Assembly: GCA_965223265.1 (NCBI GenBank)
Contig: OZ244999.1
Location: 2,464,001-2,528,000, forward strand
Direction of reading: 5' to 3'
Length of the DNA: 64,000 nt
Origin: Planctomycetota bacterium
Lineage (GTDB): Bacteria; Planctomycetota; UBA8108; SXIK01
Position 1 is the first letter of the stretch. Each line of letters begins with the position of its first letter. This document shows, in pieces, positions 9,203 through 50,755 of this stretch. A model generated the notes under the pieces. The model made no database searches. It worked only from the letters and a program-made list of their open reading frames with translations, and had not been told where the DNA came from. The translations under genes were made by a program, and so were the position numbers.

Positions 9203-9203
9203 G

Positions 9204-18185: not shown

Positions 18186-18200
18186 CCCGTCCCAGGTTCG
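18186..18200 (-). repeat. Single dispersed copy of the CGAACCTGGGAC core
   Basis: CCCGTCCCAGGTTCG matches the 22.2-kb cluster units. Confidence 0.65.
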
Positions 18201-19847: not shown

Positions 19848-20170
19848 CTTCTCCGGCCACTCAGATCTCACGTAGCAACAAGCGCCTCGCGGCGCGCCGC
19901 GAAGTGGAAACGCATGACGCTCGAATTTGACATCGCCGGTCTTTTTTTGATCTGTGACGATATTTTGCTGTCTAAGAGATCCTGAAATCTGGAGACGGCG
20001 GACGAAACCGAACCTCGGACGGAGTTGTGACAAGGCAGTGCGCCCGACCGTCTTCGCGAACAGACCACCTTCTGAGATGCACTTTGGACAGAATCGCGCG
20101 ACTGTCAGGTGCAGCTTTCGCTCCCACGGTCGATTCGAGAATCACAATACAACCGTGAAGGACTGTGGAC

Positions 20171-20590: not shown

Positions 20591-20936
20591 GAAAGCGCTT
20601 CGAGCCGAAAGCTGGTCTCTTCGCGTCCAGATCGGCCGCGGCGAACGTAGGTAATCTCTCCGAGCCCTTCTCTAGGATATACACGGCGAGCCTCGCCGCG
20701 GTCGAGCTGGGCGTGAAGAGGCCAGTTTCCTCGGCCGAATGACTTTTTCAGGCGGGCTGCTCACCGGACCGGATCGGTAGGTTCGGCAGCAGGGCATCCA
20801 ACACTTCCCCGGTGACCGCTACGCCGCGATGGACCAGGCAAGAAGGGCTGGCGACGGAGAGAGCGCGGGGCGAAGCGGAGAGCCGGAGGCCGACTTGACA
20901 AGACGAAATTGCGCACTGCCGTGCTAACATGCGCGC

Positions 20937-22178: not shown

Positions 22179-22233
22179 CGCTCACGTTTAGCCTGCGTGA
22201 AAAGTACACGATGGCAAGCTCCTCGTCGTCTTC

Positions 22234-22500
22234 GGAAACCCGTCCCAGGTTCGTTTTCAGTGTTGGGACGCCTGTCCCAGGGTAGTTTTTCGCGGGAAGA
22301 CCCGCCCCAGGTTCATTTGGGAAACCGGAAACCCGTCCCAGGTTCGTTTTCCGGGACGCCTGTCCCAGGGTCGTTTTTTCGCGGCGGAAAACCCGTCCCA
22401 GGTTCATTTTTCGGGGGCCGGTGTGTCGTCGGGAAGACCCGCCCCAGGTTCATTTCACGACGCGGAAAACCCGTCCCGGAAGACCCGTCCCAGGTCCATC
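22234..22500 (-). repeat. Cluster of about 8 (plus 1 partial) REP-like cores between convergent genes
   Basis: Units such as AAACCCGTCCCAGGTTCGTTTT, the reverse complement of the RAYT-array core, with variable spacers. Confidence 0.85.
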
Positions 22501-22701
22501 TTCCGGGGCGGGTGTGTCGTCGGCGAAGACGTCCGATTCTCATGGCGCTCGCGTTTGGCGCGCCGAGTCGACGCACTCAGGTCGTAGGGGTGGCGCCGGG
22601 CTTCGACGAGTTCCTTTTGGTAGGATTGACCTGGGGACCGGGCTCGGGCTCCGTGCGTTTTCAGACCGGGGGCCGGGCTCGGGTGTGGCCCGTTCGAAAA
22701 C

Positions 22702-35080: not shown

Positions 35081-37003
35081 ATGTGTGGTATCGCCGGGTT
35101 CTATGGTTCTTTCAATGGGCAGCTGCTCGAGGCGATGAATGCCAGGACGCGCCACCGCGGCCCTGACGACGAAGGTACTCTCCATCTTGCCGATGTCGGC
35201 GTTGGTCTTGCCCACACGCGCCTGTCGATTCTCGACCTTTCGGAGCGTGGGCGACAGCCGATGTGGGACGCGACGAACTCGGTGGCGATCACGTACAACG
35301 GCGAGATCTACAACTACCGCGAGCTGCGTGAAGAGCTATCGAGCAATGGGTTCGCTTTTCGGAGCGGAACGGACACTGAGGTTCTTCTGAACCTTTACTT
35401 GAAGCACGGCGAGGAGATGCTCAGCCGGCTCAATGGCATCTTCGCGTTCGCGCTCTGGGATCGTCGTCAGCGGCGGATGCTGGCGGCGCGGGATGGTTTC
35501 GGGGTCAAGCCACTCTATTTCGCCGAAACGACGGCCGGGTTCGTGTTTGCCAGCGAGATCAAAGCGCTGCTTGAGGCGGAGTCCGTCGCGCGTGACCTCA
35601 ATCCTGCGGCGGTGCGTCACTACTTGACGTATTTGTGGTGTCCGGCGCCAGAGACGATCCTCAAGTCCGTGCGCAAGCTAGAGCCTGGACACGTGCTCAC
35701 CTTGAGTGACGGCAAAATCGTCTCATCTCGGTGTTTCTACGAGCTTCCCTACGACCAAGCGATCGCCGAGCCGTCGGTGGAGGAGGCGGCGGCGGAGCTT
35801 CGAGAGCGTCTTGAGAAGGCGGTCGAGCGACAGTTGGTTTCCGACGTGCCGGTCGGAGCGTTCCTCTCCGGTGGGCTCGACTCTAGCGCCGTGGTGGCGA
35901 TGGCGAAGCAAGCCGGCAGCGAGCGCCTGCAGTGCTTCACGATCGAGCAGAACGATCCGCGCGTCGAGGCGAGCGAAGGTCCGTCGCTTGATCTGCCGTA
36001 TGCGCGTAAGGTGGCGAGCCATCTCGATGTGGACCTCCACGTCATTACTGTCGGTCCTGAAATGACGGATCTGCTCGAGACGATGATTTATCACCTCGAC
36101 GAGCCGCAGGCCGACCTCGCCCCGATCAACGTCTACTTCATCTGCAAGTTGGCGCGTGAGCATGGCATCAAGGTGCTGCTCTCTGGTGCTGGCGGTGACG
36201 ATATCTTTTCAGGCTACCGCCGCCACTATGCGTTGGGTTTGGAAAGGTTTTGGAGCTGGATGCCGCGCTGGGCGAGGCGGTTCGTTCGCGGTGGAACGCA
36301 GTTGGTGCCGGTCTCCCACCGCGTTGGCAGGAAGCTGCGCAAGGCGTTTGAGTTTGCCGACGTCGATGTTCTCGAGCGGACGGCTGGCTATTTCTACTGG
36401 AATCATCCGGCGTTCCTCGAGACCCTTCTTGCGGACAGCGCCGCCGACGGAGACGGCACGATTGCATGCCCGCTGACGCGAGCCCTTCGACGATTGCCTG
36501 CGGAGATGCCAGCGCTCAACAAAATGCTTTATCTCGACGCCAAGTATTTCCTCGCTGACCACAACCTCAACTACACCGACAAGCTCAGCATGGCGCACGG
36601 CGTTGAGGTCCGTGTGCCACTCCTCGACCCTGACGTGGTCGCCATGGCCGCGCGCCTGCCGGTCTGGATGAAGCAGAATGGGCGGACGGGCAAGTGGATC
36701 TTTAAGAAGGCGATGGAAGCGTCGTTGCCGGAGAGTGTGATCTACCGTCCGAAAGCCGGCTTCGGAGCCCCGCTTCGCACTTGGCTCCGGGGCGAGCTGC
36801 AGCCGCTCGTCGAGGACGTGCTGTCGGAAGCGTCGCTTTCGAGGCGAGGACTCTTCGATCCGCAGGGGGTGAGACGCATGATTGAGCTCGACCGCCGTGG
36901 TGCAATGGATGCGGCCTATCCGACGCTGGCGCTGATGTCGATTGAGTTGTGGTGCCGGATCTTCCTCGACCGCCGCACCACTCCTGAATCGGCCGCCCCC
37001 TGA
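35081..37003 (+). CDS. asnB: Asparagine synthase-like glutamine amidotransferase (polysaccharide amidation)
   Basis: MCGIAG, HRGPD, LSGGLDSS and EVRVPLLD motifs. Confidence 0.93.
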   Translation: MCGIAGFYGSFNGQLLEAMNARTRHRGPDDEGTLHLADVGVGLAHTRLSILDLSERGRQPMWDATNSVAITYNGEIYNYRELREELSSNGFAFRSGTDTEVLLNLYLKHGEEMLSRLNGIFAFALWDRRQRRMLAARDGFGVKPLYFAETTAGFVFASEIKALLEAESVARDLNPAAVRHYLTYLWCPAPETILKSVRKLEPGHVLTLSDGKIVSSRCFYELPYDQAIAEPSVEEAAAELRERLEKAVERQLVSDVPVGAFLSGGLDSSAVVAMAKQAGSERLQCFTIEQNDPRVEASEGPSLDLPYARKVASHLDVDLHVITVGPEMTDLLETMIYHLDEPQADLAPINVYFICKLAREHGIKVLLSGAGGDDIFSGYRRHYALGLERFWSWMPRWARRFVRGGTQLVPVSHRVGRKLRKAFEFADVDVLERTAGYFYWNHPAFLETLLADSAADGDGTIACPLTRALRRLPAEMPALNKMLYLDAKYFLADHNLNYTDKLSMAHGVEVRVPLLDPDVVAMAARLPVWMKQNGRTGKWIFKKAMEASLPESVIYRPKAGFGAPLRTWLRGELQPLVEDVLSEASLSRRGLFDPQGVRRMIELDRRGAMDAAYPTLALMSIELWCRIFLDRRTTPESAAP

Positions 37004-37074
37004 GAACCTCTCCGATCGAGCTGTGGTGCCGGATTTCCTCAATCGCCACACGACCCGTGGATCGATTCCGAGTG

Positions 37075-37135
37075 CCTCCTTCTCCTTCTTCTCCTCTCCT
37101 GAACCAATCCCAGGTTCCTTCTTCTTGTTCTTCTT
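37075..37135 (-). repeat. Inverted copy of the array core in a pyrimidine-rich tract downstream of the RAYT gene
   Basis: GAACCAATCCCAGGTTCC at 37101 within CTT/CCT tracts that mirror the purine-rich array modules. Confidence 0.6.
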
Positions 37136-37355
37136 GCAGGTTGGAGGAATCGGTCCGAATCCATGCCGAACAGCGCGCTTTCGACTGCGGAAGCGGCTTT
37201 CGTCACAACGACCTGCCGTCAAACGCTGTCGTTTCGACCTGCGGCGGAAGTTTTCATTCAATTGTGGCGTTTCCGCGACGTACATCGGCCACGGTTCCAA
37301 CGCGGAGTCAGAACGTTGTTCGCGGATCAAGATGCGTCGATGTCGATTCCATCCG

Positions 37356-38258
37356 CTACGGCGGCATCGGCGCGCAGCGCGCCGCGAAGTGAACACGCAT
37401 CCAGTAGGTACCGAACGGGAACAGCGCCTCGCGAAGGCCGGCGCAGAATTCCGTCAGGGCGCTACGGTACTCTCTGAGGAATCGCTTGTATTTCAGGAGT
37501 GCGTCGATGCGTCTCTCCTTGTCGCGGCATGCGAAGCGGGGATTGAGCTTTCGATACGGTTCAGCATTGCCGGGGCGAGCCAGCGGACTTTGGCGACGGA
37601 CGGCTCTGACGCCTGCGAACCGCCTGCCGCGCCGATCCATGTCGTTCCGTATGTCGGCTTCCTTCGATTCAAGATTCTTTTCCACGAGAGACGTGAGCTG
37701 TTCCTGCGAAAGTCCGGACTGAAGCGGCGGTGCTGAAATGTTTAGAGAGACGCGGTCGGGCATACTGCCATTATCTTGAAAAAAGAACGCTGGACGTATG
37801 ATCTCACGGCAAGTGCCGAAGTCCTGCGGCGATGAACGCAGGCCTGGCCACTCGTCTCCGTGAGAAACTAAACCTGCCGCCACGGGGTTGGCGAGGACGT
37901 AGACAGTCTTGTCGATCACGTCTTCTTCGCCGACGAGCGTCACTGCGCTGTACGAACCCGGTGTCCAGACGTTCTCGCGGCGCCCATAGTAGGCATTCAG
38001 CGCTCGCGCGACCAAACAGTTCAGGAGTTGAGTAAACGCAGGCAGGTTGCCAAGTCGGTCTGTGACAATCAAGTGGTAGTGGTTGCTGAGAACACAATAG
38101 CAATGGACGTCGATGAGGAAGCGTTCGGCAGCGTGCGCTAGCAGGTACAGAACAACCTGATTGACCACCTTCGACGGACGAAGGAGGAACTGCCGCTGCG
38201 CGCATCGACGCGTAACCATGTAAGTCGTCCCAGGGATAATTTGTCGTGGTGCTGTCAT
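37356..38258 (-). CDS. rayT: REP-associated tyrosine transposase (HUH/Y1 nuclease)
   Basis: YMVTRRC, SNHYH (HUH) and YVLANPVAAGLV...WPG motifs; about 300 aa with a C-terminal extension; no tnpB. Confidence 0.88.
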   Translation of the reverse strand: MTAPRQIIPGTTYMVTRRCAQRQFLLRPSKVVNQVVLYLLAHAAERFLIDVHCYCVLSNHYHLIVTDRLGNLPAFTQLLNCLVARALNAYYGRRENVWTPGSYSAVTLVGEEDVIDKTVYVLANPVAAGLVSHGDEWPGLRSSPQDFGTCREIIRPAFFFQDNGSMPDRVSLNISAPPLQSGLSQEQLTSLVEKNLESKEADIRNDMDRRGRRFAGVRAVRRQSPLARPGNAEPYRKLNPRFACRDKERRIDALLKYKRFLREYRSALTEFCAGLREALFPFGTYWMRVHFAARCAPMPP

Positions 38259-38511
38259 CGTCGCCACATATAGGCAAACTACGTTCCACACACGCCAGCG
38301 GACGCAAATAAGTCGTAAGTCGTGGCACTCGTTTAGCCTTGTGGATTCAGTCGAGGCGGTCTGTCCTGTCGAGTTGTCGCGTACCTGCGACAACTGTTCG
38401 ATTCCGAGCGGTCAATCGTCACCGGTGGTTCTTTCTGGCTTTGCGTGTGAGTCTGAGATGGGTCGTCAGGATCGCTGCAAGGAAGGGACAGGGAGGCGGC
38501 AGATGGGCCAG

Positions 38512-39590
38512 GAACAAACCTGGGACGGGGAGAAGGAAGAGAAGAAAAGAAGGAAGAAGGAGAAAAGAAGAACGAACCTGGGACAGGGCTCGGGAAACCA
38601 AAACGAACCTGGGACAGTTCGAGGTTCGAGGTTCGCGGGGGCTCGGGAAACCCGTGGGTGAAGAACGAACCTGGGAAGGGAAGGACGGAAGGACGGGCGG
38701 CCTGAGGAACCTGGGACAGGATTCGGCGAACCTAAAAAGAGAGGAAGAAGGAGAAAAGAAGAACGAACCTGGGACAGGGTTCGAAAAGAACGAACCTGAG
38801 ACAGGGTTCGGTCCGGGGCTCGGGGTTCCGGGAAACCAAAACGAACCTGGGACAGGGTTCGAACCTATGGGTGAAGAACGAACCTGGGACAGGGAAGGAC
38901 GGAAGGACGTGGGTGAAGAACGAACCTGGGACAGGGTTCGAACCTATGGGTGAAGAACGAACCTGGGACAGGATTCGGCGAACCTAAAAAGAGAGGAAGA
39001 AGGAGAAAAGAAGAACGAACCTGGGACAGGGTTCGGTCCGGGGCTCGGGGTTCGCGAGAAACCAAAACGAACCTGGGACAGGGTTCGAACCTAAAAGAAC
39101 GAACCTGGGACAGGGTTCGGTGGTTCGGTCCGGGGCTCGGGGTTCCGGGAAACCAAAACGAACCTGGGACAGTTCGGGGTTCGCGCGGGGTTCCGGGAAA
39201 CCAAAACGAACCTGGGACAGGGTTCGAACCTATGGGTGAAGAACGAACCTGGGACAGGGAAGGACGGAAGGACGTGGGTGAAGAACGAACCTGGGACAGG
39301 GTTCGAACCTATGGGTGAAGAACGAACCTGGGACAGGATTCGGCGAACCTAAAAAGAGAGGAAGAAGGAGAAAAGAAGAACGAACCTGGGACAGGGTTCG
39401 GTCCGGGGCTCGGGGTTCGCGAGAAACCAAAACGAACCTGGGACAGGGTTCGAACCTAAAAGAACGAACCTGGGACAGGGTTCGGTGGTTCGGTCCGGGG
39501 CTCGGGGTTCCGGGAAACCAAAACGAACCTGGGACAGTTCGGGGTTCGCGGGGTTCGCGAGAAACCAAAACGAACCTGGGACAGGGTTCG
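38512..39590 (+). repeat. Array of 24 AACGAACCTGGGACAGGGTTCG-type cores with modular spacers and a 365-bp higher-order period
   Basis: Cores counted from 38517 to 39573; units 8-15 recur 365 bp later as units 16-23. Confidence 0.95.
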
Positions 39591-39683
39591 GGCCGAGAGT
39601 GTCCTTCCGGCAAGCCTGCATGATCACGGGGGAGAATTTCGATATCGTCAGCGGTCCAACCCAATCCAAAAGGAGGACCGCCG

Positions 39684-40085
39684 ATGCCCCGCAGAGCCGA
39701 ACCGACACCTCGCCGACTTGAGACCGCACGCCTGCGCTTCGAGGAGTGGCGCGCCGAGCGCAAGCGTGGAGCGCGCATTCCGAAACGACTCTGGTCGCAG
39801 GCGGTCGAGCTTGCGAAAGAGTTTGGACTGCACCGCACCTCACGCGCTCTGGGGGTCGATTACGCGACATTGAAAAGACGAGCAGGCGCAGTCGGTGAAC
39901 CAGTCGTCGAGACACGGGAGCGCGGCGGCTTCGTCGAAGTCGCCGTGCCTCCCGCCGCTACACCTGGCTGCTGCACCATCGAGATCGAAGACGTCACAGG
40001 CCAGCGGATGCGCTTCAAGCTCCCGAGCATCGATCCGGCGACACTCACTTCCATCGCTCGTGCATTCCTTCGAAGCGAGTCATGA
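39684..40085 (+). CDS. tnpA: IS66 accessory protein TnpA
   Basis: FEEWR...RIPKRLW..AVELA...FVEV motif. Confidence 0.85.
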   Translation: MPRRAEPTPRRLETARLRFEEWRAERKRGARIPKRLWSQAVELAKEFGLHRTSRALGVDYATLKRRAGAVGEPVVETRERGGFVEVAVPPAATPGCCTIEIEDVTGQRMRFKLPSIDPATLTSIARAFLRSES

Positions 40086-40441
40086 TCCAAGTCACTCCAC
40101 AGATGCGGATCCTGGTGGCGGTCGAGCCGGCGGACTTCCGTAAGGGCATCGACGGTCTGGTGAGGATCTGCCGAGAGGAGCTTCCCGCCGATCCGTTCTC
40201 CGGCACTGTGTTCGTCTTCCGTAACCGGCGCCGGACGTCGATCAAAGTCGTCGTTTACGACGGCCAAGGATTTTGGCTCTGCCAGAAACGCCTGTCGACA
40301 GGACGTTTTCGCTTTTGGCCGAACTCTTCAGAGAAGAGTCGGCAGCTCGAAGCGCACGAGCTCCAGATGCTTCTCAGTGCTGGGAATCCAGAAGCCGGCG
40401 CGGCTCCAGAGCCGTGGAGAAGCGTCTGTGTGGCCGTCTGA
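40082..40441 (+). CDS. tnpB: IS66 accessory protein TnpB
   Basis: DFRKGIDGL...FVFRNRRR...YDGQGFWLCQKRL motif. Confidence 0.93.
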   Translation: MIQVTPQMRILVAVEPADFRKGIDGLVRICREELPADPFSGTVFVFRNRRRTSIKVVVYDGQGFWLCQKRLSTGRFRFWPNSSEKSRQLEAHELQMLLSAGNPEAGAAPEPWRSVCVAV

Positions 40442-40520
40442 TTTTTTTGAAAGAAACACTAGATTTTTGCGTTCCGCATCGCTACGCTCCAGCGTGCTAC
40501 CTCAGAGAGCATGACTGGAA

Positions 40521-42155
40521 GTGACGAAGAAACCTGAGCGAATCGATATCACCGAAGAGGAGCTCGAGGCGCTTGTTGAGCGCGTTGAGTCCGATCGCCT
40601 TGAGCCCGGCGACTACGAGGTGATCAAAGCGATGGCGGAGACGATTGCGTATCTCAGCCAAGCGATCGACCAAAAGGGCGTTCAGCTCAGGCGTCTTCTG
40701 CGCACGCTCTTTGGTTCTGGGAGCGAGAAGAGAGCGGAGGTTTTTGCTGAAGCGCTCGCCCGTGAGTCAGAGCAGTCAAGCTCGCCCGAGCCGGGAGAAG
40801 AAAGCGCAACTTCCGAAGCGGCGAGCGAGTCGGAAGCGACGGGCCATGGGCGTCGCGCCGCCAGCGAGTACACGGGCGCAGAGACGGTCGAGGTAAAGTT
40901 CGCGGGTCTCAGCTCGGGCGATCCCTGCCCAAAGTGCCCGAGCGGGAAAGTTTACGAACTGCCGGTTCTCGGCACGATCGTTCGAGTGAAAGGAACGACA
41001 CCGTTCGAAGCGACGGTGTACCGCCTTGAGAAGCTGCGCTGTAATCTCTGCGGCGAGATCTTCACCGCGGAGCCTCCCGCCGGAGTCGGCACAGAGAAGT
41101 ACGACGAGTCAGTGGTGAGTCTCCTTGCCGTACTGAAGTATGGCACCGGGATGCCCTTTTACCGACTTGAGAAGCTGCAGGAGTCACTCGGCGTGCCGCT
41201 ACCGTCCTCGACGCAGTGGGACATACTGAGTGGAGCGCTCAAGAGGATCGAGCCCGCTTATGACGAACTTTTCCGTCAGGCGGCACAGGGTGAAGTGATC
41301 CACAACGACGACACGACGGTGAAGATCCTGGAGCTCATGGGTAAACGGCGGGAGAATCTTCGCGATCCTCCGGAGCGTACGGGCATGTTCACAACGGGGC
41401 TAATATCGAAGAGGGAGTCACGAACGATTGCGCTTTTCTTCTCGGGATCGGACCACGCTGGTGAGAACCTGGAGAAGCTGCTGACGCTGCGGCAATCAAG
41501 CAGCGATCCGCCGATCCAGATGTGTGATGGTCTTGACCACAATCAACCAGCGGGGAAAGAGACCATCGTCGCCAATTGCCTCTCGCATGGTCGCCGCCGA
41601 TTCCTGGAAGTGATCGAGAACTTTCCCGCCGAAGTGCGCCATCTCATCGACGTGCTCGCCGAAGTGTACAAGGTCGACGGGCGAGCTCGCGCTGAAGCGC
41701 TCAGCGCGGAGGCGCGTCTTGAGCTTCACCAGAAGGAGAGTGCGCCGCTGATGGCGGACCTCCAGGAGTGGCTCGCGGCGCAGCTGAGCGAGAAGCGAGT
41801 CGAACCGAACTCGACTCTCGGTGAGGCGATCCAGTACATGCTGAAGCGCTGGGATGCGCTGACGCTGTTCCTCAGAAAACCCGGCGCCCCGCTCGATAAT
41901 AATATCTGTGAGCGCGGACTGAAGAAGGCGATCCTTAACCGGAAGAACTCGCTCTTCTTCAAGACGCGTCACGGCGCTCGCGTCGGTGATCTCTTCCTCA
42001 GCCTCATCCACACCGCCGAGCTCGCCGGCGCCAACCCGTTCGAGTACCTGAGCGCACTGCAAAGGAACTCAAAGATCGTCTCGAAGAAGCCACGCGACTG
42101 GATGCCGTGGAACTATCTTGAGACGCTCAAGAGCTCGGCGCCAACGACCCAGTAG
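40521..42155 (+). CDS. tnpC: IS66 DDE transposase TnpC
   Basis: Zn finger CPKC...CNLC, HNDDT, MCDG, CLSHGRRRF and DNNICER motifs. Confidence 0.93.
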   Translation: MTKKPERIDITEEELEALVERVESDRLEPGDYEVIKAMAETIAYLSQAIDQKGVQLRRLLRTLFGSGSEKRAEVFAEALARESEQSSSPEPGEESATSEAASESEATGHGRRAASEYTGAETVEVKFAGLSSGDPCPKCPSGKVYELPVLGTIVRVKGTTPFEATVYRLEKLRCNLCGEIFTAEPPAGVGTEKYDESVVSLLAVLKYGTGMPFYRLEKLQESLGVPLPSSTQWDILSGALKRIEPAYDELFRQAAQGEVIHNDDTTVKILELMGKRRENLRDPPERTGMFTTGLISKRESRTIALFFSGSDHAGENLEKLLTLRQSSSDPPIQMCDGLDHNQPAGKETIVANCLSHGRRRFLEVIENFPAEVRHLIDVLAEVYKVDGRARAEALSAEARLELHQKESAPLMADLQEWLAAQLSEKRVEPNSTLGEAIQYMLKRWDALTLFLRKPGAPLDNNICERGLKKAILNRKNSLFFKTRHGARVGDLFLSLIHTAELAGANPFEYLSALQRNSKIVSKKPRDWMPWNYLETLKSSAPTTQ

Positions 42156-42396
42156 CTTCGAGTGCGAACCGTCTCGTAACTGGGCCGGGAAGGCGCAACT
42201 CATCAGATTGGCGCTTTCCGGCCCCGCCGAACTTCCGGTGCGTCACGTGTCGGATAATTGCTCGGCGCGCGGCTGTCGGTGCGCCTCAACTCCGACCGCT
42301 CCGGGTGGGTGCTGCCAATTTTGCACGCCTGCCGGAAGGACACGGCCGAGACGGGGAGAGGGGAGGACGAAACGGGCGCGACTGGCGCAGGCGCGA

Positions 42397-42804: not shown

Positions 42805-43457
42805 TCGCTCTGCGCCTCCTGCTGCGGGCGCTCCGTCCCTCTTCCGCTGTCGCTCGCGGTGCTCCCGGCCACGGTACCGGTGAACTTCGGCATGGTCGCG
42901 TGACCGGGCGCGTTGATCGCCCGCGGCCTGACGATCTGGCCGACCGTCCGGAAGAGGATTCTTACATCCAACCAAAACGATTGGTTTTGCACATACCACA
43001 CGTCGAGTTCGAACTTCTCCTCCCACGAACGAGAGTTTCGCCCATTGATCTGCGCCCACCCGGTGATCCCCGGTTTGACGTCATGGCGGCGTGCTTGCTC
43101 TGGAGAGTAGAGGGGGAGGTACTCCATGAGGAGCGGCCGCGGGCCGACCAGGCTGAGCTCACCTTTCACCACGTTCCACAGCGCCGGTAGCTCGTCCAAG
43201 CTTGTCTTACGCAAAAAGCTTCCGTAGCCCGTCAAGCGCTCGGCATCGGGGAGCGGATGGCCAGCGCCATCGCACGCGTTCGTCATGGTACGAAACTTGA
43301 TCATGAGGAACGGTTCTCCATGGAGGCCAGGGCGCTCCTGGCGAAAGAATACCGGCGAACCAAGGAGGATGCGATTCAACATCGCGATCACGAGCAGCAC
43401 GGGCGACAGCAGGATCAGCCCGAGACTCGCCGCGACGAAATCAACGCACCGTTTCAT
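42801..43457 (-). CDS. PglC-like initiating phosphoglycosyl transferase
   Basis: KFRTM, SLDELP, LVGPRP and KPGITGWAQ motifs. Confidence 0.93.
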   Translation of the reverse strand: MKRCVDFVAASLGLILLSPVLLVIAMLNRILLGSPVFFRQERPGLHGEPFLMIKFRTMTNACDGAGHPLPDAERLTGYGSFLRKTSLDELPALWNVVKGELSLVGPRPLLMEYLPLYSPEQARRHDVKPGITGWAQINGRNSRSWEEKFELDVWYVQNQSFWLDVRILFRTVGQIVRPRAINAPGHATMPKFTGTVAGSTASDSGRGTERPQQEAQSE

Positions 43458-44673
43458 GGAATTCTTCGAGGTAGTCGACGAGGCGGTTCGCCAGCTGCTG
43501 TCGACTGAACTCGCGCTCTGCCAGTTTTCTGCCGTTTCGGCCCATCTCATGGCGCTCGTCCGGATGGTCTGCTAAATAAATCAGTGCATCGGCGAAAGCT
43601 TCCGGGTCTTCGGGCGCTACAGCGATGCCGCACCTGTTCTCTCCAATCATATCGGCCAACCAGCCCGGATAGTTGTTGAGAACCGGCAGACTCGCGGCGA
43701 TGTAGTCGAAAAACTTGTTGGGCGACGTCCCGTAGCGAAACGCCGGACAGTTGGCGAGAACCATGAGGCCGACGTCTGCGCAGCGAATGAGCTCCGCGAG
43801 GCGCGTTTTCGGCACCGGGTCGAGAAACAAACAGTTGTCCAGCTCGTCCTGCTCGGCTCGCGCGACGAGCTGGGGCTTGAGCTTTCCATCGCCGATAAAG
43901 ACGAGCCGGATGTCCTTCCGACCGCGCCCCGCGAGAACTGCTGCAGCGTCGAGGATGCTGCCGAGCCCATTGGCGATCCCGTGGGTGCCGGTAAACACCG
44001 CGACGAACTCGCCCTCGCGGGCGCCGGGGAAAGCGCGATCGCTGCTTGCGGCGTCTCCGAAGAGCTCGAGGTCGCAGCCGTTCGGCACCATGATCGTGCG
44101 CGACCCAGGTCGACTGCGTCCTTCGATCCCACGAACGATGCCCGGAGACAGTCCGACACATCCGTTCGCGGCGCGATAACTCAACCACTCGAGAAGGTCC
44201 ATTGCCTTGAGGATCACCGGGTTGGTGATCACTCCCATTTCGCGCGGTAGCTCCGGCCATAGATCGCGCACCTCGAAGACGAAGGGTTTGCGCCGGCGCA
44301 GCAGCCTCATGCAGATGCCTGGGATCCCCGCCGTCAGTGGCGTCGAGGTCGCGAAAAGAAGATCGTACTTCGTCGATAGTGCAACGCGAAGACTACGCAT
44401 GGAAAAAGCGAGAAACGTCCACGTGCGCTTCAGAAAACCATCGCGATTCGAGTAGGGGAGGCAAAACTCTACGACCTTAATTCCGTCGACGACGCCGCGG
44501 CGGACACCGCGCACCGGTTCGCCTTTGAGTCCCGTGTCGGCGACTCCGTAGGCGCCGCACACCATGGTCACCTCATGACCTCGCGAGATGAGACACCGCG
44601 CCATTTCATAGGACCGCGTTCCGGTGGCGCCCTCGGGTGTCGAAAAGTGTTGATGGAAGTAGAGGACGTGCAT
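43441..44673 (-). CDS. GT4 glycosyltransferase (WbuB-like)
   Basis: FEVRDLWPE, PNG.D and SPNKFFDY motifs. Confidence 0.92.
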   Translation of the reverse strand: MHVLYFHQHFSTPEGATGTRSYEMARCLISRGHEVTMVCGAYGVADTGLKGEPVRGVRRGVVDGIKVVEFCLPYSNRDGFLKRTWTFLAFSMRSLRVALSTKYDLLFATSTPLTAGIPGICMRLLRRRKPFVFEVRDLWPELPREMGVITNPVILKAMDLLEWLSYRAANGCVGLSPGIVRGIEGRSRPGSRTIMVPNGCDLELFGDAASSDRAFPGAREGEFVAVFTGTHGIANGLGSILDAAAVLAGRGRKDIRLVFIGDGKLKPQLVARAEQDELDNCLFLDPVPKTRLAELIRCADVGLMVLANCPAFRYGTSPNKFFDYIAASLPVLNNYPGWLADMIGENRCGIAVAPEDPEAFADALIYLADHPDERHEMGRNGRKLAEREFSRQQLANRLVDYLEEFHETVR

Positions 44674-44722
44674 GATGCGTTTCCTGACCGCTAGGCCTCT
44701 TCGACCGGCCGGTGCATGACCT

Positions 44723-46633
44723 TCAGCTGAGATGAATCGAAGTGGTGATGCTGTACGTGCCCGGCTGCTCGATCTTTGCCTCGAGCACTGGAAGCTGTGT
44801 GCGTCTCAAATAGTAGAGGGACTCCCAACCAGCAGTCATCGAAAGAGCTATCGACGCATCTCCGGCGTCGATTTCCAGTCGACCGAGCGAACTCTCGCAG
44901 GCGTTACCGTCGAGGCTCCAGTTTTCCGGCGCCAAGCGCCAACGAAGCACCGCCGACCGACGGAAGCCGGAGACTGTATCGCGTACGAGCCAACGATCGT
45001 TCGATACCTCCACTCGGCGCTGGTGCGTGCAGCCTCTGTAATCTGTGTAGGCGCCTTGCCAGACGGCACCGCCCGACGTCGTCGTGAGATCCCTCTGCGT
45101 CTTGACAGCCGTCCAAGCGCCGAACAGGAAACGACCTATTCGCGGCATTTGGTCGCGACTGTCGAACTCCACCGTACTGTGACCCCTGGTGCCAGTGAAG
45201 TCATCGTACAGTTCGGGCTCGCAGTTGTAGCTGAACGAGCCACCATCGCGGATGACGTTGCAGCCTTTGTGCCAAAGATCCAAATGGAGCAGGTCGGAGT
45301 GAGGCGGGCGAAAGCGTGTGTTGGACGTGCGGACCAAAGCCCACGATTTGTGGCTGCGCATGACGACAAACCCGCCACCAGGGAAAGTTTGGCTGCTTCG
45401 GGTCAAACGCCGCGCCGTGCTATCGTGACAAACCTTCACGTCGAGCCAGCGTAGCGCCTCGTCCCAAGGGCCAGAGGGGAAGGCGGTCGCGTCGCAAAAC
45501 AGAGCGGCGCCAAGCTGAACCGACGGACGAAAGTCGCGGTAGTCGCAGGCGCTGAGTGGCAGCAACTGCGCGCCGTCGTTACCGCCCAAGTTGGGGGCGT
45601 CACCGGAGACGTCATCGACGAGTTGGTAAAGCCAATGCACGGCGGCGCGAGCGCGCTCTCGAAACGTCTCGGAAAAGCCGCGGAGGTCGAACGCCATCTG
45701 CCAAAACTTCGACACGCTCAGGGTGTCGAGCAGGAGGCGGTGGTACGTGACGGACGACTGCGAAAATGATCCGTCTGGAAAGATCAGTTTCTTTACTCGG
45801 TCTTCTAGCCAAATCCGACCCATCGACGACCAGTTCTCCGCCTTCGCCGTCATCGTACTCGCCGATTCATCCGACTCTTGCCGTTTGAGCCAACTGCCAG
45901 CGACGAACAATGCCGCCGCTTCGCTCGTGCCGTGATTGTTGTTCTGCGCGATTGCATAGCGAATGGTTGCAGCGATCCGCGTGCAGTGTTCGTCAACGAA
46001 GCGTGTCAGAGCCGGGGTTGGCTGGTCCAGTTGCTGGAGGAAGAATCCGCTCAGAAGCACATGCAGGAGGCGAATCGATGTTTCCTGACCGCACTTCCAG
46101 TTCGGGCCGCGGTTGAGCGGATTGGCGGCGGTCCAGCTGGAGATCCAGCGATTGAGAAGGTCACAGTGTCTGGCGTCACCCGTCACACGATGAGCCTGCG
46201 CTAGTTTCACAGCCCAGTCGAAGCGCGAGGGCTCCCAAACGGTTTTGATGTCGCCGACGCCTGCAGAAAAATCGCTGATCTCGACCCAATGGGTGTTGGG
46301 CTCGCTCAGTCGAGCTCCAGTGAACGGATTACAGAACCAGTGCGGCGGATCGCCGACGTCGAACTCGTGTGCTGAAAAGAAGCGCATCCGGCCAGCGTGA
46401 AGATTCTCCACTTCTTGAGCGAGAAGACGCCGCGACTCTCCATCGATTTTCACCTTCTGCGGATTCTGGAGCGGTGTGAAGAAATCGCCGTCCCAGGGTT
46501 TCCCCGACGGCAGCCATACTTTGCGAGCACCGCTCTTAAGCGTCGCGCGGTAGTACGCCGTGTAGAGCACGTTTCGCAGCCCCAGCCGCGGGATCGTTGC
46601 GAGCATCCAGCGCATGCGGTCGAGGGAGGCCAA
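44723..46633 (-). CDS. Heparinase II/III-like protein
   Basis: WEPSRF, QNNNH, HSDLLH and DGGSFSY motifs. Confidence 0.85.
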   Translation of the reverse strand: MASLDRMRWMLATIPRLGLRNVLYTAYYRATLKSGARKVWLPSGKPWDGDFFTPLQNPQKVKIDGESRRLLAQEVENLHAGRMRFFSAHEFDVGDPPHWFCNPFTGARLSEPNTHWVEISDFSAGVGDIKTVWEPSRFDWAVKLAQAHRVTGDARHCDLLNRWISSWTAANPLNRGPNWKCGQETSIRLLHVLLSGFFLQQLDQPTPALTRFVDEHCTRIAATIRYAIAQNNNHGTSEAAALFVAGSWLKRQESDESASTMTAKAENWSSMGRIWLEDRVKKLIFPDGSFSQSSVTYHRLLLDTLSVSKFWQMAFDLRGFSETFRERARAAVHWLYQLVDDVSGDAPNLGGNDGAQLLPLSACDYRDFRPSVQLGAALFCDATAFPSGPWDEALRWLDVKVCHDSTARRLTRSSQTFPGGGFVVMRSHKSWALVRTSNTRFRPPHSDLLHLDLWHKGCNVIRDGGSFSYNCEPELYDDFTGTRGHSTVEFDSRDQMPRIGRFLFGAWTAVKTQRDLTTTSGGAVWQGAYTDYRGCTHQRRVEVSNDRWLVRDTVSGFRRSAVLRWRLAPENWSLDGNACESSLGRLEIDAGDASIALSMTAGWESLYYLRRTQLPVLEAKIEQPGTYSITTSIHLS

Positions 46634-46708
46634 GCGTCTAACCGTCCGGGGAAGGGTTTGAGTTGCGTTCGACGATCCTTGTCTCGCGCCGTGGAGTCAC
46701 AATTATGA

Positions 46709-47941
46709 TCAACACGAAGCGACGTGCAGAACTTTAGCAGCCGCGCGGCAGAGATCGTCGATCTCGGAGGTGCCCAGCGTTGGGTGAACCTGAAACATGA
46801 GGCTGCTCTCACCCAACTCGCTGGCAACGGGAAGGCGCTTTCGCGGTCTCAGATCATCCGTGTCGAACGCCTTTTCCAGGTAAACCTCGGAGCAAGAGCC
46901 TACGAAGCAGGGGACGCCTTCAGCGTTGATCGCGGTCAAAACGCGGTCACGGTCCCAGCCGGATCGGAGTCGCTCGCTGCGTAGAAACATGTAGTATTTG
47001 TAGTACGAGTGTCGCACGTGCGACGGCGGCTCCGTAAGACGCAGCGCCGGAAGCTCTCGCAATCGACTCGTCAGATGAGCCGCATGGCCTAGCCTCGTGT
47101 CCACTTGGTCGGCGAGCTTGCGCAGCTGAGCGCGCCCGATCGCCGCTTGAAATTCGGTCAGACGCCAGTTGGTCCCGAACGACTCGTGGAGCCAACGAAA
47201 TCCAGGTCCATGCTTCTTGTGGTAGACCGTGTCGTAATTCTTGCCGTGGTCTTTGTAGGCCCACATGCGTTCCCAGAGTTTGGCATCGTTCGTCACCACC
47301 ATGCCACCCTCGCCGCCCGTTGACATGATCTTGTCGTTGCAAAAGGAGAACGCCGCGGCGTCGCCGAAAGAGCCGACAGGGTGTCCGTTGTAGGTGGCGC
47401 CGTGCGCTTGGGCGCAGTCTTCGATCACCTTCAGGCCGAGCTCTTCCGCCAGCTTCCGAATCGGTTCCATCTCACAGGGCCAGCCAGCGAGGTGTACGGC
47501 GATGATCGCTTTGGTCTTGGGCGAGCAGAGTGGCCGGATCGTGTCGACGGTGATGTTCTGGCTCACGGGATCGACGTCGGCGAATACTGGGCGCGCCCCA
47601 ACGAGTATGACTGACGACGCAGACGCGATGAACGTCCGTGCCGGCACGATCACTTCGTCGCCCCGACCGATGTCGAGCGCGGAGAGCACGAGTTCGAGTG
47701 CAACGCTTCCGTTTGCAACTGCGACGGCGTGATCGACTTCGCAGTGAGCCGCGAACTCTGCTTCGAACTGGCGACATTCCTCTCCGGTCCAGTAGTTCGC
47801 CTTGCCGGAGCGCAGGACGTTCGCAGCCGCCTCGACTTCGTCCGCGGCGAAGTGAGGCCATGGTGGAAATGGTTCTTTCCGGATCGGAGTGCCGCCGTCG
47901 GCGGCCAATCGGACATCGGTTGATTGTTGCAACTCGGTCAT
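46709..47941 (-). CDS. DegT/DnrJ/EryC1/StrS sugar aminotransferase
   Basis: VHLAG, EDCAQAHG and SFCNDKIMSTGGEGG (PLP lysine) motifs. Confidence 0.93.
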   Translation of the reverse strand: MTELQQSTDVRLAADGGTPIRKEPFPPWPHFAADEVEAAANVLRSGKANYWTGEECRQFEAEFAAHCEVDHAVAVANGSVALELVLSALDIGRGDEVIVPARTFIASASSVILVGARPVFADVDPVSQNITVDTIRPLCSPKTKAIIAVHLAGWPCEMEPIRKLAEELGLKVIEDCAQAHGATYNGHPVGSFGDAAAFSFCNDKIMSTGGEGGMVVTNDAKLWERMWAYKDHGKNYDTVYHKKHGPGFRWLHESFGTNWRLTEFQAAIGRAQLRKLADQVDTRLGHAAHLTSRLRELPALRLTEPPSHVRHSYYKYYMFLRSERLRSGWDRDRVLTAINAEGVPCFVGSCSEVYLEKAFDTDDLRPRKRLPVASELGESSLMFQVHPTLGTSEIDDLCRAAAKVLHVASC

Positions 47942-48148
47942 CCTGCGTGCGCGATCTGGGAGTGCGTCTCCTCGAAGCAGCCGGCACACTCTGTATTCCG
48001 TCGGTCTGGTCTCAAGCCACGGCACACGGAGTGTGTCCTGCTACTTTTTCGGACAGAAGTTTTCAACGGGCTGTTAAGCCGTTCACTCGAGAGCGATTCA
48101 AATACATCCCGCCATCGATGTCAAAGCACGCGCTTGGTTTGCCGCCGT

Positions 48149-50128
48149 TCACGAAAGCCCTGGCCAGCTCACGGGACCTTCCGGCTGAGAGCTCTCCGCA
48201 CTGACCGACGGTGACGACTGGTGGCGGGTCGCCGCCGGGAAGCGGCTGGAGACCGGCGCCGGCGTAGTCTTCCGGGCGACCTCGAGTGCCGCCAACGTCT
48301 CCTGGTGGACGGGTGAAAAATCGGCAACGAGTTCGGTCAAAATGCGAAGCGCCGTGGGACGGTCTCCCTCTCTCGCTGTGGTGAAGAGAGTGGTTAACCG
48401 CGCGGCCAGATCCGGCCACTCCATTGCAGGCGGTGGGGCGCCATCGATCCAAACTTCCGGGCACGACGTTCTGGAATCTTCGGAGTCGATGAGAAGTTCC
48501 TCATAGATCTTCTCGCCAGGCCGCACACCGGTGAATTCGATGCGGATCTCGTGGCCAGGTTCTTTTCCCATGAGCCGGATCAGGTCAGTCGCCATGTCGG
48601 CGATGCGAACCGGCTCTCCCATGTCGAGCACGAACACCTCGCCGCCCTCGCCGATCGACCCAGCCTGGATCACGAGCTCCACGGCCTCCGACGTCAACAT
48701 GAAGAAGCGCGTCATCTCCGGGTGGGTGACTGTAACGGGACCGCCGCGGCGGATTTGTTCGCGGAATTTGGGTACGACGCTGCCCGAGCTTCCAAGTACG
48801 TTGCCGAACCTCACCGAGCAGAAACGCGTCGAGCTCTGCTCGTTCAGGACCTGCATGATGATTTCACCGAGTCGTTTCGTCGCGCCCATGACGTTGACCG
48901 TACGCACCGCTTTGTCCGTCGAGATGAACACGAACTCATTCGTGCCGTGGGTGTGAGCCGCGAGCGCCACATGGTAGAGGCCCTGCACGTTTGCGACGAT
49001 TCCTTCGCACGGGTTGAGCTCGACCAGCGGCACGTGTTTGTACGCCGCGGCGTGGAAAACGATTTCGGGGCGCGCTTGGCGGAACATGCGTTCAACGCTC
49101 GCGGCGTCGCGAACGTCGACGAGGTAGGGGTGCTCGAGGCACCTGTTCCCGGTCGCCGCGACTTCGCCGTGGATGCGAAAGAGGTTGTACTCGCAAGTGT
49201 CGCAGAGCGATAGAGAGGCCGGCTCGAGCTGGCTGACTTGGCGCACGAGTTCGCTGCCGACGCTGCCACCCGCGCCAGTGATCAACACGCGGCGACCGCG
49301 CAGCCAGCTGCGCATGCGGTCTCGATCCAGTTTGCGAGACGGTCGCCTGAGAAGATCGGAGATATCCGGCTCGTGAAACGAGGCGAGATCCGATGCGAGC
49401 AGCGCAGACTCAAGCCGCGGGAGTACCTTGACGCGCACGCCTTTTGCTTGCGCGCAGTTGTACACAGCCCGCAGCCGCTCGCCGGCGAGCTTGTCGATGC
49501 AGACCCAGATTTCGTCGACGGGGATGCGGTCGAGAGTGTCACTCAGAGTTTCGACGCCGCCGAAGATCTTGACCCCGTGGATCTCCTGGCCATGTTTAGT
49601 GGGGTCGTCGTCGATCAGCGCCTTCGCCGCGTAGTCAAACTTGAGCGACATGCGGAGGCCACGCAGGACAAGCTCCGCCGTGTCGCCGGCGCCGTAGAGA
49701 ATCACCCGCGTCGCATCGCCCGCGACTCGCTGGCGGTACGGCAGGCGAAACGCGAATCGGACGCCGCCGATGAGGAGGAGCGCTTCCATGCCGTAGATGA
49801 CGAACACGCTGCGCGGCACACCGTCGAGACGAAAGAGCATGAAGAGTGCCAAGCAGGAGAGCAGCACGGACCAGAGGACGGCCTTGACGACCGCGAGCGC
49901 GGTGGCCGTACTGGTGTAGCGTAGGATGCCGCTATAGAGTCGGTGGCGAGCCTGGGTGACGATACCGACGCCGAGGATGACGGGCAGCGTCTGCAGGATC
50001 GTGCCGTGGTAGCGGGTTGACTCCGTCCAGCCCACACGCAGCACGAAGGCGCCGTAGTAGGCCGCTGCCAGCAGCACGCCGTCCAGCGCCATGAGGCCCA
50101 GTTTGCGCCACGGTCCTCGCAGGTTCAT
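48149..50128 (-). CDS. Membrane-bound UDP-GlcNAc 4,6-dehydratase (CapD/WbpM/PglF family)
   Basis: Four N-terminal TMs; GAGGSVG, HAAAYKHVP, STDKAV and RFGNVLGSSGS motifs. Confidence 0.93.
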   Translation of the reverse strand: MNLRGPWRKLGLMALDGVLLAAAYYGAFVLRVGWTESTRYHGTILQTLPVILGVGIVTQARHRLYSGILRYTSTATALAVVKAVLWSVLLSCLALFMLFRLDGVPRSVFVIYGMEALLLIGGVRFAFRLPYRQRVAGDATRVILYGAGDTAELVLRGLRMSLKFDYAAKALIDDDPTKHGQEIHGVKIFGGVETLSDTLDRIPVDEIWVCIDKLAGERLRAVYNCAQAKGVRVKVLPRLESALLASDLASFHEPDISDLLRRPSRKLDRDRMRSWLRGRRVLITGAGGSVGSELVRQVSQLEPASLSLCDTCEYNLFRIHGEVAATGNRCLEHPYLVDVRDAASVERMFRQARPEIVFHAAAYKHVPLVELNPCEGIVANVQGLYHVALAAHTHGTNEFVFISTDKAVRTVNVMGATKRLGEIIMQVLNEQSSTRFCSVRFGNVLGSSGSVVPKFREQIRRGGPVTVTHPEMTRFFMLTSEAVELVIQAGSIGEGGEVFVLDMGEPVRIADMATDLIRLMGKEPGHEIRIEFTGVRPGEKIYEELLIDSEDSRTSCPEVWIDGAPPPAMEWPDLAARLTTLFTTAREGDRPTALRILTELVADFSPVHQETLAALEVARKTTPAPVSSRFPAATRHQSSPSVSAESSQPEGPVSWPGLS

Positions 50129-50669: not shown

Positions 50670-50755
50670 ACGCCCACGCCCACGCCCCACGCAAACGCCC
50701 ACGCCCACGCAAACGCGAACGCCCACGCAAACGCAAACGCAAACGCAAACGCGAA
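50670..50755. repeat. Degenerate hexamer microsatellite (ACGCCC/ACGCAA)n
   Basis: About 14 units in the divergent intergenic region. Confidence 0.85.

Follow-up and report, generated by a model that had tools for sequence, protein, structure and literature searches.

A TIRtron-like Y1/HUH transposase locus with a probable outward reiteration of its terminal repeat

RAYT-type nucleases are the leading candidates for the accumulation of short dispersed repeats in bacteria. To our knowledge, biochemical study has so far been confined to the E. coli enzyme and GTAG-type REPs, and the Y1 enzymes studied to date recognize hairpins in single-stranded DNA. According to the available text of Di Nocera et al. 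2013 (PMC3733652), the TIRtron is a RAYT-like gene that encodes a TIR-associated tyrosine transposase (TIRYT) and is flanked by non-REP inverted repeats carrying a GGGGWSAS motif. These TIRs are said there to occur 'in dimers or clusters' and to form moderately abundant families in some genomes. In the available portions of Quentin et al. 2018 (PMC6006769), TIRYT is equated with TnpAY1 subclass 2.1, a subclass connected in Table 1 with Bertels' Group 1, and REP-like sequences are reported to be absent from the vicinity of subclass 2.1 genes. For TnpAY1 class 3, found in Planctomycetes, Acidobacteria and Proteobacteria, the same portions describe atypical flanking structures as intermediate between insertion sequences and REPtrons; these structures can be numerous per genome.

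The locus described here lies in a 64,000-nucleotide stretch of a Planctomycetota contig (hereafter, the window), in which a preliminary description had pointed to a RAYT gene beside an array of hairpin repeats built from shuffled spacer modules. The features of the locus are these:

37060..37140, minus strand, gene-downstream terminal unit, with a degenerate core GAACCTGGGATTG at 37105-37117 between purine tracts
37356..38258, minus strand, intact Y1/HUH gene (RAYT-like, TIRYT-like) of 300 aa, from the ORF list
38259..38515, minus strand, leader from the gene to the first array unit, with one partial core GGGACAGGG at 38486-38494
38516..39620, plus strand, direct-unit array (24 units, each 27-62 bp long) on the upstream side of the gene and running outward
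38843..39571, plus strand, 365-bp block of eight units in two tandem copies (units 8-15 and 16-23)

The locus is a little-described relative of the known repeat-associated transposases, the closest published kind being the TIRtron/TIRYT. Our favored reading, to which we give a probability of roughly 0.6, is that of a TIRtron-like element in which the array arose by outward reiteration of the upstream terminal repeat and is not a classical REP or REPIN cluster.

The start of the gene at 38258 agrees with the family consensus MTAPRQ. The N-terminal ~140 residues form the nuclease domain, with the motifs SNHYHL and YVLANPVAAGLV, and the C-terminal ~160 residues are conserved and match no known family. 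The HUH histidines and the tyrosine are invariant in 32 aligned sequences, the tyrosine in the context YVLANP. A predicted structure (pLDDT 83.8) gave TnpAREP (4er8) as its best Foldseek match in the PDB (probability 1.00, TMt 0.59, rmsd 2.9 over 131 columns), with IS200/IS605 transposases ranking next. The family profile also reached 4er8 among PDB sequences (E = 0.0019); phmmer with the single protein gave nothing meaningful against the same sequences, so that only the profile and the fold search led to this match. The protein has the TnpAREP/IS200 fold together with the HUH and Tyr motifs. The scores against curated families were lower. The NCBIfam equivalog REP_Tyr_transpos (NF047646) matched with 59.5 bits (E = 3.3e-16), below its cut-off of 80, an alternative 287-aa form gave 49 bits against the same cut-off, and Pfam Y1_Tnp matched with 14 bits (E = 0.056), below its cut-off of 23. 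All 32 aligned members match REP_Tyr_transpos at E <= 0.01, 22 match Y1_Tnp and only 3 match the NCBIfam IS200 model at E <= 0.01; the low Y1_Tnp score and the rarity of IS200 matches set the protein and its family apart from IS200/IS605. Hence the RAYT identity proposed earlier holds in that fold and profile are nearest to TnpAREP, but not in the stricter sense of passing the curated RAYT and Y1_Tnp cut-offs.

The family numbers 1,491 cluster representatives at E <= 1e-30, with a length of ~297 aa. As it is large and falls mostly under the profile cut-offs, profile-based surveys may under-count it. Three paralogs (65-77% amino acid identity) lie on the same 9.18-Mb contig and the gene is therefore not single-copy, whereas within the window tblastn with the protein found the gene itself and no second coding copy. 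Among 72,556 plasmid records none had a match over 80% or more of the protein, and seven had distant N-terminal matches. ESM Atlas clusters bear the automatic names 'transposase family protein' or 'hypothetical protein' and are commonest in Myxococcota; of the three listed, two carry Y1_Tnp on 10-48% of their members and the first has no common Pfam family, and none of the Atlas data pointed to a role of the C-terminal half.

Splitting positions 38480-39620 at the core gave units composed of a head, AACGAACCTGGGACAG, and a variable filler, arranged head to tail. The count of 24 units, their length range and their position near the gene (258 bp from the ATG at 38258 to the first unit) bear out the preliminary description. 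The 16-nt head is exact in 20 of the 24 units and has at most two mismatches in all of them. The full 22-mer core is exact in 12 units, within one mismatch in 16 and within three in 19, and consequently the foldable 3' arm GGTTCG is absent from about one-third of the units. Units 1-4 are the most degenerate. The 13-mer GAACCTGGGACAG, allowing two mismatches, gave 36 matches in the window versus 1.78 expected (100 shuffles, maximum 5). The recurrent fillers are a purine tract, GGGGCTCGGGG, TATGGGTGAAG and GGAAGGAC; many fillers are truncated re-copies of the element end, and some have a stutter-like form (for example GGTTCG/GGTGGTTCG). Reuse of a small spacer set, as noted earlier, is thus real, but shuffling of modules is not needed, since the filler order is mostly explained by the 365-bp higher-order repeat that duplicates eight units. 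TRF reported a period of 365 with 2.1 copies at 99%. Units 8-15 and 16-23 are identical in 362 of 366 aligned columns, and the differences, an indel plus substitutions, are confined to the last unit of the block.

Across the gene from the array, the single inverted core reported earlier was found again, in degenerate form. This unit is opposite in orientation to the array, lies ~240 bp beyond the stop codon and aligns locally with an array unit of the purine-tract type (score 22); we presume it to be the other end of the element. The leader lacks the GTCCG-N3-7-CGGAC palindrome seen in some homologous loci, and its inner 60 nt gave no folding signal (z = 0.57).

The core can form a hairpin with a 6-bp stem and an 8-nt loop (-5.4 kcal/mol as DNA, z = -2.3), and 6 of 200 shuffled sequences fold as well. 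This hairpin is weak and is not conserved across the family: folding of the motif windows there is no stronger than that of controls (mean z 0.06 versus -0.10), and for the 60 nt inward of the ends the mean z values were -0.62 and -0.22. The stem has no GT[AG]G foot, the four nucleotides 5' of CGAACC being AGAA in 14 and AAAA in 8 of the 22 units (22/22) that bear CGAACCTG, and there are no inverted REPIN/BIME pairs at the array; in both respects the preliminary description was correct.

The relation of repeats to gene was assessed in 80 loci of Myxococcota that encode proteins 46-54% identical to the window protein. A related motif of the CTGGGTC/CTCGGTC type flanks the gene in inverted orientation, often repeated as whole and truncated copies. 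It was counted as CT[CT]T[CGA]GG[TG]C, a pattern derived from the same 80 loci on which it was counted. Within 250 bp upstream all 65 occurrences were on the minus strand; within 500 bp downstream, 115 occurrences were on the plus strand versus 3 on the minus. A mirrored control motif gave 0-2 per bin, and there was no motif excess past 1 kb. At least one unit was present in 67 of the 80 loci, at least two on one side in 39 and at least three in 22; 13 loci had the motif on neither side, and it was on both sides in 31 of 72. The search for arrays beside homologs that had been proposed as a check was positive in distant homologs. Judged from this strand- and position-specific flanking motif, the repeats and the gene belong together. 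Exact 9-mers common to both flanks gave no discrimination in these GC-rich sequences (inverted in 72 and direct in 69 of 73 loci).

In L069, GAACCTGGGTCGG/GAACCTGGGTCTG, identical to the window core at 11 of 13 positions, occurs four times upstream of the gene. Repeated whole and truncated units are also found in L009 (8), L013 (10), L038 (7), L078 (5 upstream) and L075. The filler GGGGCTCGGGG also stands next after the motif in L068 and L016, and L009 has stutter-type fillers (GGGCCTCC/AGGCCTCC). The end motif takes the form GAACCTGGGACAGGG in the window and CTCTGGGTCGGG or CTCTCGGTCGGG in Myxococcota, the core common to both being short. In 25 of 76 homologous loci there is a subterminal palindrome, GTCCG-N3-7-CGGAC, inside the left end.

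In several genomes the gene and its ends recur as a unit of ~1.25 kb with 97-99.7% identity, and homology stops at the motif; this is the reason for reading the array as reiteration of a terminal inverted repeat. Some Anaeromyxobacteraceae genomes hold at least 4-5 copies with 95-99.7% nucleotide identity in one genome. All five copies in JAULAX have one boundary at TCCCGACCGAGAGTAC; the other is at CTCGGTCGGGA in L051, L054, L063 and L067, and homology is lost 12 bp past the gene in L059. The units of the window array part ways directly after GGGACAG(G), equivalent to the terminus mapped in JAULAX. The repeat is therefore better read as the terminal inverted repeat of an element than as a REP hairpin. 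Relative copies that are 95-99% identical have from 2 to 10 downstream units, and as unit number differs between near-identical copies, the arrays change faster than the element body. Obvious target duplications were absent at most of the relative copies examined. The window element itself looks old and is possibly domesticated rather than recently mobile, recent mobility being unsupported because its own ends are degenerate and it has no near-identical second copy.

The resemblance to TIRtrons lies in a Y1 gene set between non-GTAG inverted repeats at a fairly fixed distance, with medians in the homologs of 145 bp upstream and 233 bp downstream, past the end of the match. In the window the upstream distance is larger: measured from the equivalent alignment position it comes to 296 bp, roughly double the family median. 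GGGGWSAS agrees at 7 of 8 positions with TGGGACAG of the window and with TGGGTCAG of relatives; other relatives, with CTCGGTCGGG, fit less well. Signatures of subclass 2.1 given in Table 1 of PMC6006769, as available, are present here (NH[YF]H, WE, Y...NP, a Ser after the core and a C-terminal extension), but the proteins are ~297 aa long versus a median of 238, and their C-terminal half lacks the HTH and DnaA_C profiles reported for that subclass. Signature residues are the basis on which this kinship is judged. The available text of the TIRtron papers (PMC3733652 and PMC6006769) yielded no description of near-identical 1.25-kb copies or of long direct arrays that lie on one side and include truncated units, and their main text contains neither Anaeromyxobacter nor Myxococc. 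Nor did the accessible parts of the RAYT, TIRYT and HUH literature, Myxococcota and Anaeromyxobacter included, provide a published description of the family or its arrays.

With IS200/IS605 elements (TnpA Y1; IS608, ISDra2) the family shares the Y1/HUH fold, multicopy and nearly identical elements in some relatives, the general lack of obvious target duplication and, in the 25 loci noted above, a subterminal palindrome. However, the Tyr motif is Y...NP and not Y...Q (motifs from the available Table 1 of PMC6006769), a single motif, in inverted copies, forms both ends in place of two differing same-strand hairpins, and the protein is twice as long and is not accompanied by tnpB. Class 3 resembles the locus in having atypical flanking structures without GTAG, but its Y....Q motif, length of ~178 aa and CnGA foot, as given in the available text of PMC6006769, do not fit.

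Under the favored TIRtron-like reading, the gene would encode a RAYT-related Y1/HUH single-strand nuclease/transposase, inverted copies of a short terminal motif would delimit the element, and each array unit would comprise a single end copy and a short filler. The protein would recognize and nick the end motif, host polymerase would extend the 3'-OH at the nick, and cleavage of the new strand, with its rejoining to the Tyr-linked 5' end, would then add a unit, as in the TnpAREP/BIME amplification model. Such nick-extend-rejoin amplification has already been published for REP/BIME (PMC3333891, available text). Larger blocks, such as the 365-bp doubling, could be added later by ordinary unequal recombination or slippage among units. 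Points against it are that the motif lacks conserved folding and the inverted ends fall on opposite strands, and that slippage or unequal crossing-over would be enough for the 365-bp doubling and the stutter-like fillers, with no need of the enzyme.

A wider reading, which we put forward only tentatively, is that the ~297-aa proteins define an unnamed family of Y1/HUH elements having, unlike IS200/IS605, true terminal inverted repeats and ~1.25-kb mobile units, the ends of which grow outward by repeated self-nicking and copying. The conserved C-terminal half might then allow a single-strand nuclease to act on inverted, non-hairpin ends. If so, the arrays would be a readable natural record of one-ended nick-and-copy events, and the proteins would represent an insertion-sequence family not described before, with a new variation on the mechanism of HUH transposition. 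The family joins three states that are usually treated as separate: the mobile, IS-like unit of Anaeromyxobacteraceae, ends reiterated next to the gene, and orphan arrays at a distance from it, as in the window. Should the nuclease make the arrays, they would offer a simple assay and a sequence record of repeat-unit addition.

Among the alternatives, a passive minisatellite survives best, and we consider it possible, if doubtful. Copies of the element end would have multiplied by slippage and unequal recombination with the nuclease uninvolved, and the locus would be a minisatellite seeded by a transposon end. The latest expansion, a clean tandem doubling with both boundaries within repeated sequence, is what such a process would leave, and the fillers of both the window and L009 resemble microsatellite-type stutter. 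Yet 39 of 80 distant loci show independent reiteration of the end motif, invariably at element ends and in end-specific orientation, and unit number varies between copies that are 95-99% identical. These two observations favor a process tied to the ends, though any single step may have been slippage.

It is unlikely that the locus is a classical REPtron, that is, a domesticated, host-serving RAYT with REPs at high copy throughout the genome, the array being an ordinary head-to-tail REP cluster. REPtrons (E. coli, Pseudomonas; PMC3333891, PMC5581495; 4er8) provide the best structural and profile match to the nuclease domain, and they too have the gene between inverted repeats and further repeats away from it. 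The core can form a hairpin, the paralogs are diverged rather than identical, and head-to-tail REP clusters with variable flanking segments are published (PMC3733652, available text). The window also contains copies of the core 15-20 kb from the gene locus:

22240..22510, minus strand, orphan array of 8 degenerate units of core type GAACCTGGGACGG, with no transposase gene alongside
18187..18199, minus strand, single dispersed core with 1 mismatch
20010..20022, plus strand, single dispersed core with 2 mismatches

Counting the orphan array, 10 core matches with at most two mismatches are grouped at 18-22 kb, and another with two mismatches is at 57805. The units of the orphan array are all in direct orientation and sit between convergent genes, an ankyrin-repeat ORF and a phosphotriesterase-family ORF, which is a typical REP position. 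Against a REPtron are the lack of a GT[AG]G foot and of inverted REPIN/BIME pairs, and a weak hairpin that is missing from about one-third of the units and conserved neither in the orphan array nor in the family. The protein falls below the curated RAYT equivalog cut-off and has the extra ~160-aa conserved C-terminal region. Moreover, REPtrons typically have one copy per genome, whereas here there are three paralogs and the relatives are near-identical multicopy mobile units of ~1.25 kb that show no motif excess beyond 1 kb.

Still less probable is that the units are transcription terminators or insulators against read-through into the transposase gene and that reiteration was selected for that role. 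Read on the strand of the gene, a full unit presents a 6-bp stem and, after it, a T-rich tail, and the downstream unit, being oppositely oriented, faces transcription arriving from an asparagine synthase gene. Positions 36900-39700 contain 19 terminator-like sites, compared with 4.0 +/- 2.1 in shuffled sequences, but the scan is one of consensus matches only and the stems are weak. The Myxococcota motifs have no folding signal, and the orphan array accounts for just 1 of the 3 sites in 17900-22800, where 5.2 were expected. A terminator reading of the orphan array itself was dropped, the site count being below expectation.

Transcription of the array into repeat RNAs, as suggested earlier, with processing in the manner of a CRISPR-like or guide-RNA array, is highly improbable: the layout of repeat and variable filler is superficially similar, but CRISPR-like arrays have regular repeats and unique spacers, whereas here units of 27-62 bp carry short, reused and mostly repeat-derived fillers, no Cas-like Pfam family was found among 24 ORFs of at least 250 aa (a subset of 46) across the window, no promoter-like site was found at the locus, and Rfam gave no gathering-level match and, at E <= 1, two chance-level matches with E > 0.5. 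We give equally little credence to an assembly artefact in which collapsed or expanded repeats inflated the array, for although two 99%-identical 365-bp blocks are a structure that assemblers mishandle, their last units are told apart by an indel and substitutions, an IS66 copy with an 8-bp target duplication is cleanly placed at the array end, and many independent assemblies contain arrays of this style. That IS66 copy, which adjoins the far end of the array and has its own target duplication, and the dispersed core copies in the window had both been missed by the preliminary description.

Our best reading is that the locus would be a TIRtron-like element, a variant with a conspicuous reiterated end, as judged against relatives only 46-54% identical and with a motif pattern obtained post hoc. 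TIRtrons are published elements in which the gene for a tyrosine transposase (TIRYT) lies between terminal inverted repeats (TIRs) that are not REPs. The observations of the preliminary description were confirmed and its interpretation was partly supported. The features concerned are as follows.

Features of the window
18187 and 20010: single copies of the core (the repeated 13-mer)
22240-22510, minus strand: orphan array, eight degenerate core units between convergent ankyrin and phosphotriesterase ORFs
37105-37117, opposite to the array: single degenerate core, ~240 bp beyond the gene's stop codon
37356-38258, minus strand: the gene, a Y1/HUH ORF of 300 residues that starts MTAPRQ as in the family consensus
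38516-39620, plus strand: direct array of 24 head-to-tail units, unit length 27-62 bp
39599-42343: apparently complete IS66 element (orf1, TnpB_IS66, DDE_Tnp_IS66), right of unit 24 and directly after it

Both the 24-unit array and the single inverted core downstream of the gene were thus present as described, the latter in degenerate form. That core sits between purine tracts resembling type-A array units. With the array upstream and the inverted core downstream, the gene has motif copies in inverted orientation at either side, those on one side being amplified.

Every unit starts with the 16-nt head (AAC)GAACCTGGGACAG, which is exact in 20 of the 24 units and has at most two mismatches in all of them. 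The core, at up to two mismatches, had 36 matches in the window versus 1.78 expected. The full 22-mer originally proposed was exact in 12 of the 24 units, had at most one mismatch in 16 and at most three in 19; hence the 3' arm of the hairpin is absent from about one-third of the units. The full 22-mer does fold as claimed (6-bp stem, 8-nt loop), but as a DNA hairpin it is weak (-5.4 kcal/mol, z = -2.3). In the array units the hairpin is preceded by no GT[AG]G foot, in agreement with the reported lack of a GTAG foot. The fillers, the variable remainders of the units, fall into about seven types used repeatedly, so the small reused set was borne out. Their order is A G F D, then A E B, then two copies of the block C D C A B E B' F, then the array end. 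TRF reports this eight-unit block as a higher-order repeat of 365 bp (2.1 copies, 99%), the copies being identical in 362/366 columns with differences confined to the last unit. As the block is duplicated, much of the apparent shuffling of units is recent segmental doubling.

The gene product matched only Y1_Tnp in Pfam (E = 0.056). The NCBIfam REP_Tyr_transpos model matched its first ~140 residues only (E = 3.3e-16), scoring 59.5 bits where the cut-off is 80. A structure model built from 32 aligned relatives (pLDDT 83.8) had as its best PDB match 4er8 (probability 1.00, TMt 0.59), which is E. coli TnpAREP with bound REP hairpin; IS200/IS605 transposases came next, and the family sequence profile also finds 4er8 (E = 0.0019). 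The suggested RAYT affinity is upheld by the fold but not by the RAYT score cut-off. Among the 32 aligned relatives neither the HUH histidines (SNHYHL) nor the tyrosine (YVLANPVAAGLV) varies, and the C-terminal ~160 residues are conserved to the protein end (RxLNPR..RDKWKR...FP.GTYW.R) and had no match in Pfam, PDB or Atlas. The family is large: a word-indexed search gave 2,735 matches, and an exhaustive one, at E <= 1e-30, gave 1,491 50%-identity representatives. The gene's own 9,179,496-bp contig carries three paralogs (77, 77 and 65% identity).

A genome scan gave 80 homologous loci, nearly all from Anaeromyxobacter or other Myxococcota and 46-54% identical, the source genome being outside the collection. 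The window core itself was not enriched around these loci. A related motif, CT[CT]T[CGA]GG[TG]C, derived post hoc from the same 80 loci in which it was counted, had 0 plus-strand and 65 minus-strand matches 0-250 bp upstream of the gene, and 115 plus-strand and 3 minus-strand matches 0-500 bp downstream. The mirrored control motif gave 0-2 matches per bin, and there was no motif excess more than 1 kb from the gene in the 80 loci. At least one unit was present in 67/80 loci, at least two on one side in 39/80 and at least three in 22/80 (maximum 10); arrays beside homologs, which had been put forward as a check, are thus found with a related motif. Spacing is tight, the median distance being 145 bp on the upstream side and 233 bp on the downstream side; the equivalent distances in the window are 296 bp and ~240 bp, and hence its downstream spacing fits the relatives and its leader on the upstream side exceeds theirs.

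The relatives' arrays and the window array are of one style: those of L009, L013, L038, L078 and L001 contain full units, units shortened from their 5' end and stutter-like fillers that copy the motif's outer part. A Polyangia locus, L069, carries GAACCTGGGTCGG/GAACCTGGGTCTG four times upstream of the gene with 11/13 identity to the window core, locus L075 has 6-7 units either side of the gene, and the GGGGCTCGGGG-type filler is common to the window, L068 and L016. In 37-nt windows around 190 family motifs the mean folding z was 0.06 versus -0.10 for controls, and so the conserved feature is a sequence motif rather than a hairpin; the units of the window gave a mean z of -1.63. In 25/76 relatives (e.g. 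L009, L053, L077, L080) a palindrome, GTCCG-N3-7-CGGAC, stands at a constant position just interior to the left terminal repeat, 122-171 bp before the match start; the background in distant flanks is 0.004 per 200 bp. The palindrome, which is not in the window, may represent a subterminal hairpin such as those of IS200/IS605.

Copies of relatives within one assembly are 97-99.7% identical across ~1.25 kb and lie in different contexts. The sequence common to the five JAULAX copies begins at TCCCGACCGAGAGTAC. In L051, L054, L063 and L067 it ends directly after CTCGGTCGGGA, which gives these four a 14-bp terminal inverted repeat; in the fifth, L059, homology is lost 12 bp past the gene. From these copies we infer a probable element terminus near GGGACAGG, and the window array units diverge directly past GGGACAG(G), the equivalent position. 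No target duplication was evident at most relatives' copies. At L010 an unexplained ~34-bp stretch (CCTGCCCTCGCG...GAGGAGG) recurs in each flank of the element, some 165 bp upstream of the match and some 290-330 bp downstream; it far exceeds the usual target duplication length and the other copies have none. Among copies 95-99% identical the number of downstream units ranges from 2 to 10, indicating that arrays change faster than the element body.

Di Nocera et al. 2013 (PMC3733652) name RAYT-like genes with flanking non-REP inverted repeats TIRtrons/TIRYTs, and give the TIR motif as GGGGWSAS, with TIRs in dimers or clusters. Most TIRYTs are equated with subclass 2.1 by Quentin et al. 2018 (PMC6006769), where this subclass is marked by NH[YF]H, WE and Y...NP and by an extended C-terminus, its median length being 238 residues, and where REP-like sequences beside its genes are not reported. 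Bertels et al. 2017 (PMC5581495) place their Group 1 among the most IS-like RAYT groups. The signatures of our family fit TIRYTs and subclass 2.1, but its proteins are longer and without the reported HTH or DnaA_C domains; its members fall mostly below the Pfam threshold. Neither Anaeromyxobacter nor Myxococc appears in the main text of PMC3733652 or PMC6006769, although a member could be listed in the figures or supplements of PMC3733652. No published account of such arrays or of 1.25-kb mobile units came up in our literature searches.

In the TIRtron-like reading, inverted terminal motifs would delimit a RAYT-related Y1/HUH gene, and outward reiteration of one of them would have given the array. 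We favor growth by the nick-extend-rejoin scheme set out for TnpAREP and BIMEs in PMC3333891, with bigger jumps, the 365-bp doubling among them, presumably made by ordinary unequal recombination. It is also possible that slippage by itself makes the array. Full units on the gene strand look like weak terminators, as on the minus strand of 38573-39590 each consists of a short stem and then a T-rich tail, and 36900-39700 holds 19 terminator-like sites versus 4.0 +/- 2.1 in shuffles; this signal was not seen for the orphan array. A classical RAYT/REP system and the array of repeat RNAs earlier suggested were both judged unlikely for the locus.

The IS66 element has 22-nt inverted repeats (39599-39620 and 42322-42343) and is flanked by an 8-bp direct target duplication, GGCCGAGA (39591-39598 and 42344-42351). 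By a core search of the window, the array does not continue past it; the IS66 element is a later insertion unrelated to the array. The orphan array and the single cores at 18187 and 20010 lie 15-20 kb from the gene, and tblastn detected no second gene copy or transposase remnant in the window, the orphan array included. Fillers of the GGGCTCGGG type occur near the orphan array at 22630-22690.

The genes around the element and IS66 (35081-37003 and 43441-50128) encode asparagine synthase, glycosyltransferase, heparinase II/III-like, DegT aminotransferase and Polysacc_synt_2 proteins, and both appear to lie within a polysaccharide-synthesis cluster. A hexanucleotide tandem repeat, ACGCCC/ACGCAA, is present in ~10 copies at 50670-50752 (TRF). 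The region 4233-17882 is rich in mobile elements, with a large serine recombinase (4233-6308), tyrosine integrases (9773-11062 and 12032-13051), an AAA_25 protein (13550-14527) and an ISL3 transposase (16518-17882).
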